IMG/VR virus record: IMGVR_UViG_3300045988_022899
Coordinates: 1-31,131 of that record
Source of the DNA: a virus
Taxonomy: Duplodnaviria; Heunggongvirae; Uroviricota; Caudoviricetes
Length of the DNA stretch: 31,131 nucleotides
Strand: one strand, 5' to 3'
The position numbers and the translations under genes were made by a program. Position 1 is the stretch's first letter. Each line of letters opens with the position of its first letter. The notes beneath the pieces are model-generated. The model did no database searches. It was not told the origin of the DNA and saw nothing but the letters and a program-made list of their open reading frames with translations. Positions 913 through 30,477 of this stretch are shown piece after piece.

Positions 913-932
913 TACTGTATAAATATACAGTT
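913..932. promoter_or_regulatory. LexA (SOS) box TACTGTATAAATATACAGTT
   Basis: CTGT-N8-ACAG with an AT-rich spacer, close to the E. coli LexA consensus TACTGTATATATATACAGTA; 20 bp upstream of the ATG at 952. Confidence 0.8.
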
Positions 933-951
933 ATTGCATGGAGAAGATAAG

Positions 952-1209
952 ATGCAGCAGTATCACTATCCACTGGAAGACGGATTTACCGAAAGGATTC
1001 ACACGCCGGGAGGCGTCAGGTCACTGGTGGAGGGATCGCACTTGATGAAATTACTCCGGGATCTCGATAAGGATGGATTTAATGTCGATGGCCCACTTGC
1101 CGAACTGACTGCACTGATTAACTACGTCACCAGCTCACAGATGTCTATGCGGGATCTGCAAACACATCTCGACTATTGTGCCGAACAATTACGAAAACAA
1201 ACCCGGTAA
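952..1209 (+). CDS. Small antirepressor-like protein (paralog of the Ant C-terminal domain)
   Basis: ATG at 952 with GGAGA RBS (the track ORF starts at an upstream TTG). The 85-aa product aligns with the C-terminus of the 2355-3041 product (shared L..LL..L...G.DV.G...ELT....Y......M.RD.QTH..Y pattern). Confidence 0.7.
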   Translation: MQQYHYPLEDGFTERIHTPGGVRSLVEGSHLMKLLRDLDKDGFNVDGPLAELTALINYVTSSQMSMRDLQTHLDYCAEQLRKQTR

Positions 1210-1215
1210 ATTTAA

Positions 1216-1233
1216 AGGCCGCAAGAGCGGCCT
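1216..1233. terminator. GC-rich hairpin between convergent genes (possible bidirectional terminator)
   Basis: AGGCCGC-AAGA-GCGGCCT stem-loop sitting between the stop at 1209 and the stop at 1232. Confidence 0.45.
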
Positions 1234-1960
1234 ATCGTTTCGCTTTGTGCTCATCCCAGCACGTTTTGCACCATGCCATTAAGCCGTCCGCATTTTGATT
1301 ATTAGGGTAAAAGCTGGTTCGTTTTCTGCGGACATTACAAATTGGGCACCACTTCATATGGCGTGTATTCTTTGGGCCATCGAGACACCTTGCACACCAT
1401 TTAGTCAATCCATCTGGATTTTTTGACGATTTCCTGAATTTTTCATATGGAAGGTTTATTCTGCATCGCAAGCACTGCTTGCTACCACTTGAAACTCTGT
1501 TAGCTGATTCTTCTTTTGGCGGCGATACAGAAGGTATTCTTGCTGGCTCTGATATTGCCTGAGGTGCTTTTTTAGATGACTGAGACGATATGTCATCACC
1601 AGGGAATCTTCCATGATATGCCGGACGCGTTGACACTCCAGGTGGAATCTCAGCTGTAAACGGCTTTGGCTGAATCAGTTGCCTCTCTTTTGCTAACTCC
1701 TGCTGTTTATAATATGTCTGGATTACCGCACTATCATAAGCAGGAGGTGCGGAAATATTAGGCGCATTACCTCCAGTTTTTTGAAACTGAGTAGAGGTGT
1801 GTTCTATCACCTGTGTACGATTAATCGTTATCTCCCCATCTTCGGTCTTTATCGTTTTGTTATGATTAACGACCGTACGATCAGAGATCTTAGTCTTGTT
1901 CTGGTTGATAACGTAAATAATCACCGCAACCACACCAACAACTATCCAGAAAACTTCCAT
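1232..1960 (-). CDS. Membrane-anchored protein with C-terminal tandem Cys-rich (zinc-ribbon-like) repeats; function unknown
   Basis: ATG at 1960 with GAGGAA RBS. N-terminal hydrophobic helix (VFWIVVGVVAVIIYVI), Pro/Ser-rich linker, then two similar CxxC...DGL..WC..C units. Confidence 0.65.
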   Translation of the reverse strand: MEVFWIVVGVVAVIIYVINQNKTKISDRTVVNHNKTIKTEDGEITINRTQVIEHTSTQFQKTGGNAPNISAPPAYDSAVIQTYYKQQELAKERQLIQPKPFTAEIPPGVSTRPAYHGRFPGDDISSQSSKKAPQAISEPARIPSVSPPKEESANRVSSGSKQCLRCRINLPYEKFRKSSKNPDGLTKWCARCLDGPKNTRHMKWCPICNVRRKRTSFYPNNQNADGLMAWCKTCWDEHKAKR

Positions 1961-1980
1961 TGCTTTTCCTCACAATAACA

Positions 1981-1995
1981 TTACCTTAAAGGTAA
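1981..1995. promoter_or_regulatory. Operator palindrome TTACCTTAAAGGTAA
   Basis: Perfect 6-3-6 inverted repeat; identical copy at 3108-3122; a degenerate copy follows at about 2000-2013. Confidence 0.55.
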
Positions 1996-2073
1996 TATCT
2001 TGCTTTCAGGTGATCAAGCGTTAAACGCAATCAACCAAATACGGTTGATTTTAATGTTTCTTCGCGCTTATCA

Positions 2074-2088
2074 TTACCTTTACGGTAA
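2074..2088. promoter_or_regulatory. Operator palindrome TTACCTTTACGGTAA in the ant leader
   Basis: TTACC-N5-GGTAA motif, seen in sequence. Confidence 0.45.
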
Positions 2089-2354
2089 ATTTACATCGCA
2101 CTCCTCTTGTGCCATAGTAATCGGGCACTGGCAAAATCCAGTGCCGGGATTGGCGTCCCGGATTACTACAGAGGCACATATGCCGCATAAGCGGTTTTTT
2201 TATGTGTAAAGCGCACCTATTCTATGGTGGGCTGTGTGGGGGCACCGAAAGGTGCGCCGGGTCCTTTGTAGCCGGTTACGCCAACCCTGCACAGTTCACC
2301 ACCAACCGATTGGCGTCGGTAGTGGTGATTAACCTAACTACAAAGGTGATCACT

Positions 2355-3041
2355 ATGACTGCTAACGTAACCCCATCTGTTTTTCATTTTGAATCAGAAG
2401 CAACCATTCGAGCCATTGTTATTGATGGAAATCCTTGGTTTGTTGCCAAAGACGTTATTAAAGCTCTTCAACTGACAAACCCCACTATGTCAATAAAATC
2501 TCTTGATGATGATGAAAGGGCTAAATTTAACTTAGGCCGTCAAGGCGAAACCAATATTATCAACGAGTCAGGCCTCTACACACTGATCCTCCGCTGCCGC
2601 GATGCGGTGACACCAGGCACTATCCCCTACCGCTTTCGTAAATGGGTTACAGGTGAGGTTCTTCCTCAGATCCGCCGCACCGGAAGTTACATTAAAAACT
2701 CGCTCCCGCAGGAAGAACGCATAAAGATGGTTGCCGACCAGGTAGCCAACGCCACGGCGTCAGCAGTGATGCAGGCGATGAAGATAGAGAACAAAACCTA
2801 CAGTGCCCCACTGAAGCCCGGCTACCGCAGTCTGATTCATTCTCCGTCTGGTGTTCTCGGCCTGACGGAGAACTCACTGCTGATGAATCTGCTGAACCAG
2901 TTACAGGAAGACGGGCACGACGTATCGGGCGCGGCGGCGGAGTTGACCACCATGTTCTGCTACATCGTCGGTGTGAGCAAATGCCTGCGTGATATCCAGA
3001 CGCACGCGGAGTACATCAACGACAAGGCAGGGTTCTTCTGA
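2355..3041 (+). CDS. ant: Phage antirepressor (Bro-N domain N-terminus plus C-terminal antirepressor domain)
   Basis: ATG at 2355 with AAGGTGA RBS; the track ORF has a 51-codon upstream extension. N-terminus FHFESEATIRAIVIDGNPWFVAKDVIKAL...ESGLYTLILRCR...VLPQIRRTG matches the Bro-N/antirepressor pattern from memory. Confidence 0.8.
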   Translation: MTANVTPSVFHFESEATIRAIVIDGNPWFVAKDVIKALQLTNPTMSIKSLDDDERAKFNLGRQGETNIINESGLYTLILRCRDAVTPGTIPYRFRKWVTGEVLPQIRRTGSYIKNSLPQEERIKMVADQVANATASAVMQAMKIENKTYSAPLKPGYRSLIHSPSGVLGLTENSLLMNLLNQLQEDGHDVSGAAAELTTMFCYIVGVSKCLRDIQTHAEYINDKAGFF

Positions 3042-3107
3042 CGAGCGGCGGCACAGGGATGTGCCTTTAAAATAATCATTGGCGATGTGATGTAGATTCG
3101 CGTAATA

Positions 3108-3122
3108 TTACCTTAAAGGTAA
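3108..3122. promoter_or_regulatory. Operator palindrome TTACCTTAAAGGTAA
   Basis: Identical to the 1981-1995 site; 43 bp upstream of the ATG at 3165. Confidence 0.55.
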
Positions 3123-3164
3123 ACCTGTTTTTATTTTATACCTGTAACTTACCGGAGATTAAAG

Positions 3165-3491
3165 ATGACAAAACTTGGATTCGTGATGAGAGGTCCGGTA
3201 AGAAGCGGAACTCATGCAAAGCGTAGCAAGAGTCGTATTTTTACTGGTAAGGTTGTAGCACGTAAATCAGCTATTGGCTCGTTCAATAGTGAAAATGCGG
3301 CATTGCGCCATATTTTTATCAGCACAAAGCCAAGAGCATCCGCTGATGTGCATACAATGTCTATTCCTATCACAAAGAATATAAAGCGGATAAAAAAGCT
3401 CTCATCTGCAGAATCAAAAGAGATATCTTTCCGCCAGCTTAACTCATTAGAAACGCATATGAAGGAAGAGGAATTCGATGTTTTTGAGTGA
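3165..3491 (+). CDS. Small basic protein, first gene of a coupled pair (candidate antitoxin/partner)
   Basis: ATG at 3165 with GGAGA RBS; Lys/Arg-rich N-terminus and acidic C-terminal tail; its stop overlaps the downstream start by 14 nt. Confidence 0.55.
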   Translation: MTKLGFVMRGPVRSGTHAKRSKSRIFTGKVVARKSAIGSFNSENAALRHIFISTKPRASADVHTMSIPITKNIKRIKKLSSAESKEISFRQLNSLETHMKEEEFDVFE

Positions 3492-3990
3492 GTATAGCGG
3501 GAAGGTTATACCTACTGGTGAGTTTAAAACTGATGACTTTCTGATTTCGCTAAAAGATGCTTTTAAACAACACTGGCGTCATGGTCATCATCCTGATCTG
3601 GGAAAAGATACTCTTTTTGAAAGACCAGACGAAGTATTAGGCTTCCATCTCAGAAAGGTTCATGTCAATATTGGTGAATATGCATCATATTCATACTCAT
3701 GTACTGAACAGTGTTGGGATGAGTGGTCATATGGATTGATTGATGAACAAGGAAATTACAGGCCAAAACCAACCAGTAACGCATATCTCATATATGCAGT
3801 CAATGAAATAAGAGATGCAGCCTTACTAGCTTATTGGGACCCGCCCGCACACACCAAAGCTAACGCAAAAGTTTGGATGGATTCCGTATTGAATTTCACA
3901 AAATTATTTCATGAACGAACGAATACAGCCCCACTTAGTAGAAATGTTTATCCGTGGGATTATTCGTACAAATCCAAAAAGCCTGCATAG
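3478..3990 (+). CDS. YafO-like toxin-domain protein (putative ribosome-dependent mRNA interferase)
   Basis: ATG at 3478 with GGAAGAGG RBS. Motifs HPDLGKDTLF, LRKVHVNI and AALLAYWDPPAH resemble the YafO-family FGRD / HIHL / LLLAIL.P.H pattern as recalled; not database-verified. The locus is AT-rich. Confidence 0.45.
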   Translation: MFLSEYSGKVIPTGEFKTDDFLISLKDAFKQHWRHGHHPDLGKDTLFERPDEVLGFHLRKVHVNIGEYASYSYSCTEQCWDEWSYGLIDEQGNYRPKPTSNAYLIYAVNEIRDAALLAYWDPPAHTKANAKVWMDSVLNFTKLFHERTNTAPLSRNVYPWDYSYKSKKPA

Positions 3991-20736: not shown

Positions 20737-20826
20737 ATCAATGACTCCGTACGCAATTAAATTATTACCAATTTAACCACATATGATTTATTTATCGTAG
20801 AAGGTTGACATTTAACGCGTGAATTA

Positions 20827-21163: not shown

Positions 21164-21240
21164 GTGGCATTAGCTCAGTTGGACAGAGCAACCGCCTTCT
21201 AAGCGGTTTGTCGCAGGTTCGAATCCTGCATGCCACGCCA
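21164..21240 (+). tRNA. tRNA-Arg (anticodon UCU)
   Basis: Hand-folded cloverleaf: 7-bp acceptor stem GTGGCAT/ATGCCAC, anticodon stem ACCGC/GCGGT with loop CTTCTAA, T-arm GCAGG-TTCGAAT-CCTGC, 3' GCCA; resembles E. coli argU. Confidence 0.85.
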
Positions 21241-29507: not shown

Positions 29508-29738
29508 TCATGAGTAGAAGAAGTATGCCAGTTCTGCTTTTGAGCGCAGCCATTGTCTTGTTTTACAGGCTTTAAAAAGCCCATTCATCAATACTTTACC
29601 TGGCATTTTGCGCTTACCTGTTAAGTGAGTCTGGATATAGTGACTCGTCGTTCCGGCTTCCTGTGCGAAGGCTTCACGCTCATCCGGAGTAAGTGCAAGC
29701 CAGTGCTTTTTGAAATCGAAATGTCCGTTATCGCTCAT
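29508..29738 (-). CDS. Cro-like small HTH regulator (YdaS-like), first gene of the leftward early operon
   Basis: 76 aa; HTH-like segment EAFAQEAGTTSHYIQTHLTG; divergent from the repressor across an operator-rich intergenic region. Confidence 0.6.
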   Translation of the reverse strand: MSDNGHFDFKKHWLALTPDEREAFAQEAGTTSHYIQTHLTGKRKMPGKVLMNGLFKACKTRQWLRSKAELAYFFYS

Positions 29739-29892: not shown

Positions 29893-30477
29893 ATGAAAAG
29901 TATCCAGGACGTCCGCAGGCAAAATCTCAACGACTTGATCGACCGTGAATTCAATGGTGTTCAGACGCGGATGGCTGAAAAACTTGGAACTCAGGCAAAT
30001 CTGGTAAACCGCTGGGCTCTTGGTAAGAAGGTTATCGGCGATCAGGTTGCGCGAAAAATTGAAGCTGCCGCCAATAAACCCCGTAACTGGCTTGATATCG
30101 ATCGCTCGCTTTCTCAGGAAGGTTTTCAGCCTGTCGGCCCAAGCGACATTGGTCAGCTGGCAGCTCACAACCTGGAACGCTGGATGAGTGAAAGCCGCGA
30201 CCTTTCAACTCAGGGAAAACTTCACCGCGCATCCGGCGTCGCCCAGGTGACAATAAGCCGCCTGTTAAACAATGAGGTCAGCGTTTCCATTTCCACCCTG
30301 GAGAATGTTGCATCTGCATTCGGGCGTCACGGATATGAACTACTGATTCATCCGCATGACCCTGCAACTATCAACTATGACCGCTCGCGCTACGCATTGT
30401 TACCTGAAACAGAGAAGGCAAAGATCGAAAGTTACATTGAATTTGTCATCAACCAGAACGAAAAAAACAAACAATAA
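29893..30477 (+). CDS. Prophage repressor, tandem HTH (XRE-type) domains, no S24 peptidase domain
   Basis: 194 aa; two HTH-like segments (QTRMAEKLGTQANLVNRW and SGVAQVTISRLLNNEVSVSISTL); no Ala-Gly/Ser-Lys autocleavage module; no recognisable SD before the ATG. Confidence 0.65.
   Translation: MKSIQDVRRQNLNDLIDREFNGVQTRMAEKLGTQANLVNRWALGKKVIGDQVARKIEAAANKPRNWLDIDRSLSQEGFQPVGPSDIGQLAAHNLERWMSESRDLSTQGKLHRASGVAQVTISRLLNNEVSVSISTLENVASAFGRHGYELLIHPHDPATINYDRSRYALLPETEKAKIESYIEFVINQNEKNKQ

Follow-up and report, generated by a model that had tools for sequence, protein, structure and literature searches.

Introduction

Phage phi29 p16.7 and Escherichia coli ZipA are bitopic N-out/C-in proteins in which a transmembrane anchor is followed by a flexible linker and a C-terminal binding domain, and p16.7 joins its N-terminal transmembrane segment to a C-terminal domain that binds DNA. 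AbiP and PdpSau are described as abortive-infection proteins in which an anchor at the N-terminus holds to the membrane a cytoplasmic domain of positive charge that binds nucleic acid, or is predicted to (PMC10127798). In the present study, we analysed a gene for a 242-amino-acid (aa) protein in a viral DNA of 31,131 nucleotides (IMG/VR record IMGVR_UViG_3300045988_022899, positions 1–31,131), the whole of which is hereafter called the window. We regard the protein, encoded at 1232–1960 on the minus strand, as a prophage accessory protein that is anchored in the membrane and predicted to bind nucleic acid through a fold other than that of AbiP and PdpSau.

Like AbiP of Lactococcus and PdpSau of Staphylococcus aureus prophages, the 242-aa protein is the product of a single gene on a mobile element and joins a membrane anchor to a basic cytoplasmic domain, for which binding is predicted; PdpSau is also, like the gene studied here, a prophage accessory gene (PMC10127798). 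However, the binding part is OB-fold-like in AbiP and PdpSau, whereas in the 242-aa protein it is a tandem zinc finger. No sequence relationship to AbiP or PdpSau was detected, and a PADLOC scan returned no matching family. The resemblance would thus be one of working alike, not of membership. With p16.7 and ZipA, only the overall layout is alike, their C-terminal domains being unrelated to that of the 242-aa protein.

Many phage-exclusion and defence functions are encoded by genes that neighbour the immunity genes of prophages. The position of the 242-aa gene is like those of P22 sieA and lambda rexAB, in that it lies beside an ant region and a tailspike and that homologues lie directly 3′ of mnt or cI. 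The gene order in P22 is 16–sieA–orf59a–mnt–arc–ant–tailspike, and that in the window is tailspike side–Tum-like gene–242-aa gene–ant–injection-type protein. However, P22 SieA contains several long hydrophobic stretches but lacks a Cys-rich domain, whereas the 242-aa protein has one helix and Cys fingers, and sieA has its own annotated promoter, whereas the 242-aa gene has a predicted repressor operator over its −10 hexamer. Homology to SieA was rejected, as BLASTP against P22 SieA gave only E = 0.23 over a 7-residue segment.

Architecture of the predicted protein

The gene and the parts of its product were delimited using an open reading frame (ORF) listing, an alignment of homologues, and a model built by AlphaFold2 (AF2) with the family alignment and scored by the predicted local distance difference test (pLDDT), as follows.

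1232–1960, minus strand: coding sequence of the 242-aa membrane-tethered tandem zinc-finger protein (predicted), with the stop codon at 1232–1234 (ORF listing; end-to-end match to PHROG 6762)
1967–1971, minus strand: Shine–Dalgarno sequence GAGGA of the gene, 6 nt 5′ of the ATG (read from the sequence)
1216–1233, no strand assigned: GC-rich hairpin terminator common to the 242-aa gene and a convergent 85-aa gene
1901–1954, minus strand: residues 3–20, conserved transmembrane helix, predicted N-out/C-in signal anchor (AF2, charge and alignment)
1796–1900, minus strand: residues 21–55, conserved juxtamembrane segment NQNKTK.SDRTV....TIKTEDGEI.I.RTQV (nearly invariant alignment positions)
1496–1795, minus strand: residues 56–155, low-complexity P/S/A/Q-rich tether of variable length (pLDDT mostly <50)
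1379–1480, minus strand: zinc finger 1, residues ~161–194, with C163, C166, C189 and C192 plus F175 and D183–G184 (invariant columns, pLDDT >90, weak Stc1 match)
1235–1354, minus strand: zinc finger 2 and C-terminal helix, residues ~203–242, with C205, C208, C231 and C234

The terminator hairpin has a 7-bp stem followed by TTTAAATTT on the minus (coding) strand, and the gene overlaps no other gene in the window. An earlier annotation of this DNA, made without database searches (the original prediction), had described an ORF with an N-terminal helix, a Pro/Ser-rich linker and two similar Cys units, and the ORF listing and AF2 confirmed each of these parts. The two Cys4 units are true repeats, with 35% identity over 40 aa (E = 1e-7), and the region of zinc finger 2 and the C-terminal helix contains a basic patch, RRKRTSFY. 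Per 100 residues, the tether contains 14 P, 12 S, 11 A and 9 Q.

The AF2 model contained a confident helix at residues 3–20 (pLDDT ~90) and a confident tandem finger domain at residues 160–242 (pLDDT >90), with strands and then a helix in each unit, and it left residues 22–155 disordered, with a weak, low-confidence beta-hairpin at 26–55 and a helix at 77–93. Modelled by itself, the finger domain had a pLDDT of 86.6. A Foldseek search of the full-length model against PDB returned nothing significant (best E = 1.9); the disordered tether dominates this model. Among 57 family members, the N-terminal flank of the helix has a median of 2 residues and a mean of 0.05 K/R, the first 15 residues past the helix have a mean of 3.7 K/R, and the finger domain has an isoelectric point (pI) of 9.3–10.3 (~10 in the 242-aa protein) and a net charge of +9 to +18. 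The positive-inside rule is satisfied in all 57, and this charge distribution argues for an N-out/C-in topology, in which only two residues would be periplasmic and the fingers would therefore face the cytoplasm at the inner membrane. A secreted protein or a lipoprotein was rejected, the N-terminus having neither a basic n-region nor a lipobox. The anatomy of a membrane helix, juxtamembrane segment, variable tether and two Cys4 fingers is very probably correct.

Identity of the predicted zinc fingers

The Cys units probably belong, by profile and pattern matches, to the Stc1-type fingers (PF12898), the kind found with phage HNH and endonuclease VII nucleases. The Pfam Stc1 model matched residues 160–193 of the 242-aa protein weakly (21.1 bits versus a gathering threshold of 24.8, E = 4.7e-4), gave hits at E ≤ 0.01 in 25 of the 31 family members (best 1.2e-4), and was found in 35 of the 63 distant relatives retrieved by the family profile (best 3.4e-18). 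In the distant relatives, the finger is fused to HNH (8), HNH_5 (8), Endonuclease_7 (7) and helicases. Among PHROGs, the finger region matched zinc modules at the N-terminus of families named ‘endonuclease VII’, ‘HNH endonuclease’ and ‘Lar-like’, and 36 BFVD matches at E ≤ 1e-3 were mostly to viral HNH endonucleases and to phage proteins that carry the label ‘Stc1 domain’. When PDB sequences were searched with a profile, only the N-terminal zinc motif of PacI matched (E = 0.13). The CxxC, F, DG and (W/L)CxxC pattern of the 242-aa protein is also that of the Stc1-type finger and of the N-terminal zinc module found in phage HNH/endonuclease VII enzymes, PacI and Hpy99I.

Each unit has two CxxC pairs and is modelled as a small beta-hairpin plus helix finger, with zinc binding predicted. 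The fingers appear to be treble-clef-like, Stc1-type fingers and not classic zinc ribbons, so that the zinc-ribbon-like reading of the original prediction is replaced. The same prediction could not place the protein in a known family; this still holds for the protein as a whole, which belongs to PHROG 6762, a family without an assigned function, but no longer for the Cys units.

Unlike the nucleases, the 242-aa protein has no His-Me/HNH catalytic motif, and its two fingers are joined to a membrane anchor. No HNH, HNH_5 or Endonuclease_7 Pfam domain was found in the 242-aa protein or any of the 31 members, no HNH motif occurs among the invariant columns of their alignment, and the PHROG and PacI matches reach only the N-terminal zinc modules of those enzymes, not their nuclease parts. 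An active HNH nuclease was rejected for want of both a catalytic motif and a nuclease domain. Because Stc1-type fingers occur here with a membrane anchor and without a nuclease domain or HNH motif, the protein would be a duplicated DNA-recognition accessory of phage nucleases, lacking the catalytic domain and tethered to the membrane. The domain associations and the charge suggest that the fingers bind nucleic acid.

Conservation and distribution

The 242-aa protein matched PHROG 6762 over its full length (E = 5.7e-150). A word-indexed search returned 33 homologue clusters, in Enterobacterales, and an exhaustive library-wide HMMER search, counted in clusters of 50% identity, returned dozens of relatives matching over their full length, along with 1734 proteins that have the finger in common; a scan of genome contigs returned two loci only. 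In the alignment of 31 homologues, the membrane helix, the juxtamembrane segment and both fingers are conserved, and the segment in between differs among members in both length and sequence. Each of the eight Cys is invariant or almost so, E2, F4, W5, G9, Q20 and N21 are conserved in the helix region, and the segment equivalent to the tether is 33–106 aa long across the family.

The gene is intact in 129 of 5426 complete E. coli genomes (~2.4%), chromosomal in every case and always annotated ‘hypothetical protein’; E. coli ML35 and 118UI have an allele identical to that of the window. For 39 distinct intact E. coli alleles, the ratio of nonsynonymous to synonymous substitution rates (dN/dS) is 0.15–0.38 overall, ~0.02–0.08 in the zinc domain and ~0.4–1 in the tether. 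The family also occurs in prophages of Serratia, Providencia, Pectobacterium, Yersinia and Aeromonas. The end-to-end PHROG match, the full-length relatives and the low dN/dS together indicate that the 242-aa gene is real, not a chance ORF, and is under purifying selection.

The closest deposited relative of the window is TL-2011b, which has 96% identity over the region and contains the same ORF. For the region concerned (L001, 3431–4519), the RefSeq and GenBank records give only a misc_feature, ‘similar to hypothetical protein’. A pseudogene, as the misc_feature might imply, was rejected, because the 242-aa ORF is intact in TL-2011b and the gene shows purifying selection. In the homologue of Yersinia phage YeP5 (L015, 1900–2634), a (KT)8 dipeptide repeat directly follows the membrane helix, and the annotated start adds 29 residues before the conserved MEIFW start.

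Accessory cassette, operator and promoter

The window is a phiV10/epsilon15-like (Uetakevirus) prophage or phage. The 242-aa gene is absent from phiV10 and Tyrion, and the match of ZX5 to the region is broken in the same manner. Pairwise alignment with phiV10 and the sequence upstream of the gene gave three further features.

~1196–2028, no strand assigned: promoter–gene–terminator cassette without a counterpart in phiV10 (pairwise alignment with phiV10)
1980–1996, no strand assigned: perfect 17-bp palindromic operator ATTACCTTAAAGGTAAT, predicted for the prophage repressor, ending 19 nt from the ATG of the 242-aa gene
1989–2017, minus strand: predicted sigma-70 promoter, with −35 TTGATC at 2012–2017, a 17-nt spacer and −10 TACCTT at 1989–1994 inside the operator

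The ~830-bp insertion relative to phiV10 carries the promoter, operator, gene and terminator together and is a typical accessory (‘moron’) cassette, complete in itself. At its edges (1197–1211 and 2029–2044) lie the imperfect direct repeats AACAAACCCGGTAA and AATCAACCAAATACGG, phiV10 has a single copy, AACAAACCAGATAAGG, and the repeats may mark a recombination junction. Because phiV10, ZX5 and Tyrion lack the gene and yet have the same backbone, the gene is dispensable for the Uetakevirus backbone.

The original prediction had placed an operator upstream of the start codon, and the perfect palindrome at 1980–1996 bears this out. Its motif, ATTACC-N5-GGTAAT, has 28 strand-hits in the window versus 1.9 expected, at 860, 1980, 2073 and 3107 in the accessory cluster around the 242-aa gene and at 20826, 23959/23977, 27429, 27491, 29437, 29774, 29822, 30534 and 30596. 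Copies lie between a 194-aa helix–turn–helix repressor gene (29893–30477) and a divergent cro-like gene (29508–29738), and further copies flank a consensus TTGACA (PL-like) promoter downstream of the repressor gene; the motif is therefore expected to be the operator of the main immunity repressor. A related repressor in ZX5 was found by experiment to block lytic growth (PMC9782041). Some sites lie away from obvious early promoters, for example in or near the small terminase gene and near a tRNA gene.

A generic promoter scan called no minus-strand promoter 5′ of the 242-aa gene, and the promoter was derived by comparing the upstream regions of homologues. These regions fall into seven diverged sequence types with unrelated spacers between the hexamers. 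In six of the seven, TTGAxx stands 16–17 nt before TACCTT or TAACCT, and the −10 lies within the local palindromic operator, as follows.

This window: −35 TTGATC, 17 nt, −10 TACCTT
Serratia: −35 TTGAAC, 17 nt, −10 TACCTT
Providencia: −35 TTGAAT, 17 nt, −10 TAACCT
Pectobacterium: −35 TTGACA, 16 nt, −10 TACCTT
Viral contigs L073–L078: −35 TTGACC, 17 nt, −10 TACCTT
Viral contigs L080/L081: −35 TTGATC, 17 nt, −10 TACCTT

The operator variants include ATTAACC-N5-GGTTAAT in Providencia and TTTACC-N5-GGTAAA in Pectobacterium, and most of the homologue loci examined contain more copies of their local motif than expected (for example, 7 hits versus 0.6 expected in L013). Because the −10 hexamer lies inside the repressor operator, we infer that in this clade the gene would be repressed in the stable lysogen and made, with the antirepressors, on infection or induction.

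Two other palindromes were observed upstream of homologues. A 15-bp palindrome, CTGAT-N5-ATCAG, lies 40–90 bp upstream in L011, L083–L090, L091–L096, L098 and L106, in several unrelated phage backgrounds; it equals CTG-N9-CAG, one base short of a LexA box. A 12-bp palindrome, GTGACATGTCAC, lies just 5′ of the −35 of the gene in the L072–L078 viral-contig group and the Superficieibacter locus (L018), and it may be a second regulator site.

Homologues in other settings

The homologue of Aeromonas phage phiARM81mr begins 18 bp past the stop codon of an S24-type cI that is transcribed in the same direction, and nothing but a Shine–Dalgarno sequence, with no terminator, lies between the two genes. 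The linkage to cI recurs in three further metagenomic loci, whose proteins are 37–44% identical to the phiARM81mr protein and one of which is ordered cI–orf146–homologue. In locus L103, an mnt gene with 72% identity to P22 mnt is followed after 11 nt by the homologue, which has arc and a P22-type antirepressor opposite it and lies within a true arc/ant/mnt region; orf59a and sieA take this place in P22. In L106, the homologue is next after the gene for a Mnt-like protein. The analogy with the P22 immI/sieA neighbourhood that the original prediction drew is thus real, as both the comparison of gene orders and the L103 homologue attest. Another homologue lies in a small island that encodes serine recombinases and a CI-type repressor but no structural genes, and another in a siphovirus tail region.

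The positions linked to cI and mnt correspond to lysogeny-maintenance operons, the classic sites of exclusion genes (rexAB and sieA), and the distant homologues there are predicted to be co-transcribed with cI or mnt and so to be expressed in the lysogen. Regulatory wiring would therefore differ between clades, an early repressor-controlled promoter standing against cI/mnt operons. Because members occur in such differing settings (cI, mnt, island and tail region), we regard the gene as a portable accessory that is not tied to any one protein partner. The original prediction had offered either superinfection exclusion or lysogenic conversion; the cI/mnt contexts favour an exclusion or defence role, and conversion is disfavoured in this phage by the −10 hexamer inside the operator.

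Possible function

The anatomy of the family is clear and unusual, and its function is wholly inferred. We favour a role in phage–phage competition (exclusion or abortive infection), in which the protein would act on DNA where it meets the membrane on the cytoplasmic side, and give this role a rough probability of 0.4, because a membrane anchor joined to a basic nucleic-acid-binding domain has precedent in AbiP and PdpSau. The fingers, on a flexible tether at the inner membrane face, may act on DNA or a nucleoprotein complex, and this action at the membrane would exclude or abort competing phages. In this phage, the protein would be made straight after infection or induction, with the antirepressors, and would then be shut off in the stable lysogen; speculatively, in a serotype-converting phage such early expression could cover the gap until the O-antigen is remodelled. 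As the gene would be either co-expressed with cI or mnt or fired at once on infection, a toxic, antirepressor or core replication role seems unlikely. More tentatively still, the protein could be a single-gene exclusion or abortive system in which the tethered fingers sense or seize incoming DNA, the transmembrane–juxtamembrane module is the effector (for example, by oligomerising), and the wiring to cI/mnt or an early promoter varies by phage; if true, such a system would be previously unrecognised.

Several points weigh against a role in phage–phage competition. If the operator prediction is right, silence in the lysogen would be atypical for a prophage defence gene, and it conflicts with the homologues linked to cI and mnt. 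A simple tether does not account for the strong conservation of the transmembrane helix and juxtamembrane segment. The DNA binding of the fingers is itself a prediction from domain associations and charge, and the eponymous Stc1 finger mediates protein–protein contacts. PHROG 6762 is annotated as function unknown, an NCBIfam scan of the 242-aa protein gave nothing near the cut-offs, and a PADLOC-DB v2 scan of it gave no defence families at E ≤ 1.

Alternatively, the protein could be a host-takeover factor, acting on induction or infection by using its fingers to keep a host protein or the nucleoid bound to the membrane, or by poisoning the divisome through its transmembrane segment, in the manner of Kil, DicB or Gp56-type inhibitors with a ZipA-like layout. 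The repressor-controlled early promoter beside SOS-linked antirepressors, the highly conserved transmembrane helix, and the ZipA-like order of N-terminal anchor, P/Q-rich tether and C-terminal globular domain are all compatible with this, and homologue P0181 is labelled ‘ZipA’ by one source. However, this label is most likely due to the low-complexity tether, Pfam scans of the 242-aa protein and 31 members detected no ZipA_C or other divisome domain, and a growth inhibitor would be unexpected in a cI or mnt operon of a stable lysogen, making host takeover unlikely. An organiser of the phage's own DNA at the membrane, in replication, partition or packaging, would fit the outline architecture of phi29 p16.7, the basic finger domain and the early expression predicted here. 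Such a task ill suits a gene that is dispensable, being absent from phiV10, ZX5 and Tyrion of the same backbone, that occurs in unrelated elements, including an island without structural genes and a siphovirus tail region, and that is elsewhere co-transcribed with cI or mnt; we consider it slightly less probable again than host takeover.

The location of the gene among immunity functions (Tum-like/ant here, mnt in L103, and cI in Aeromonas-type phages) would fit a regulator of the lysis–lysogeny switch, which would sequester at the membrane a repressor, an antirepressor or some other regulator and so serve as an anti-antirepressor or as a tethered antirepressor. Tandem Stc1/LIM-like fingers are able to mediate protein–protein contacts. 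However, the 242-aa protein has no similarity to the Ant, Bro-N, KilA-N or Tum families: antirepressor models (Bro-N, KilA-N, ANT and Tum-like) gave no Pfam or PHROG match for it, whereas both neighbours do match. In addition, an antirepressor within a cI operon would be self-defeating, and because partners vary by phage while the fingers stay highly conserved, a phage-specific protein target is argued against; this role is as improbable as that of a DNA organiser. The least probable alternative, to which we give very little weight, is the opposite topology, in which a periplasmic, disulfide-bonded Cys-rich domain would block the injection machinery from outside, like SieA, Imm or HK97 gp15-type proteins. 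Eight Cys could in principle make four disulfides, and the gene position is sieA-like, but all 57 members obey the positive-inside rule, with a domain net charge of +9 to +18, the nuclease zinc modules to which the fingers are homologous are intracellular, and there is no similarity to SieA.

The family is unnamed and would place a nuclease-type DNA-recognition finger on a membrane tether without a nuclease. If the protein does exclude phages, it would be a mechanistically distinct single-gene entry barrier at the cytoplasmic face or an abortive-infection factor, and the two opposite wirings would make a useful case for asking at which stage of the phage life cycle exclusion is required. Should the protein have no exclusion effect, it would be one more conserved prophage gene without an assigned role.

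Neighbouring genes

The accessory cluster sits between the tailspike side and an 824-aa injection-type protein, and contains the LexA-controlled Tum-like gene, the 242-aa gene, isrK and a C4 antisense RNA before ant, and a YafO-like toxin. The features adjoining the 242-aa gene are as follows.

913–932, plus strand: LexA box
952–1209, plus strand: 85-aa free-standing Ant C-terminal-domain gene
2073–2089, plus strand: operator
2125–2201, plus strand: isrK
2220–2306, plus strand: C4 antisense RNA
2355–3041, plus strand: Bro-N antirepressor (Ant)

The 242-aa gene is convergent with the 85-aa gene and divergent from isrK–C4–ant (2125–3041), in agreement with the arrangement given in the original prediction, which had also called it antisense between two antirepressor genes. 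Both neighbours are indeed antirepressor-like; ‘antisense’ applies only in the sense of the opposite strand. The LexA box is the sole one in the window and has two mismatches to the consensus, none being expected by chance, and the 85-aa product has 41% identity to the C-terminal domain of the Bro-N Ant. This suggests that the LexA-controlled 85-aa gene is a Tum-like, SOS-triggered antirepressor beside a full-length Ant controlled by repressor and RNA.

The isrK and C4 antisense RNA, scored by Rfam at 76.8 and 79.5 bits, respectively, both lie directly 5′ of the Bro-N ant. The ~200 bp of the isrK/C4 leader have 77.6% identity to the region 5′ of Ant in more than 100 Shiga toxin (Stx)-converting phages, and the matches of Stx phages and Tyrion to the locus fall in the isrK/C4/ant region, not in the 242-aa ORF. 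The leader similarity points to a P1-like RNA control module for antirepressors that would be common to these phages. The operator at 2073–2089 adjoins the −35 of TTTACA-17-CATAGT, whose predicted start point is the 5′ end of isrK, and its centre lies at ~−44 relative to this start, an activation-type geometry; the repressor might thus stimulate isrK/C4 transcription in the lysogen.

Further along the cluster, the operator at 3107–3123 precedes a small ORF (3165–3491), which overlaps a weak YafO-like toxin ORF (3478–3990). The Pfam match of the latter (E = 9.5e-4) is under threshold, and the TL-2011b homologue is annotated as a YafO-family toxin. Outside the cluster, the phage encodes a tRNA-Arg (anticodon TCT) at 21164–21240 on the plus strand of the window.

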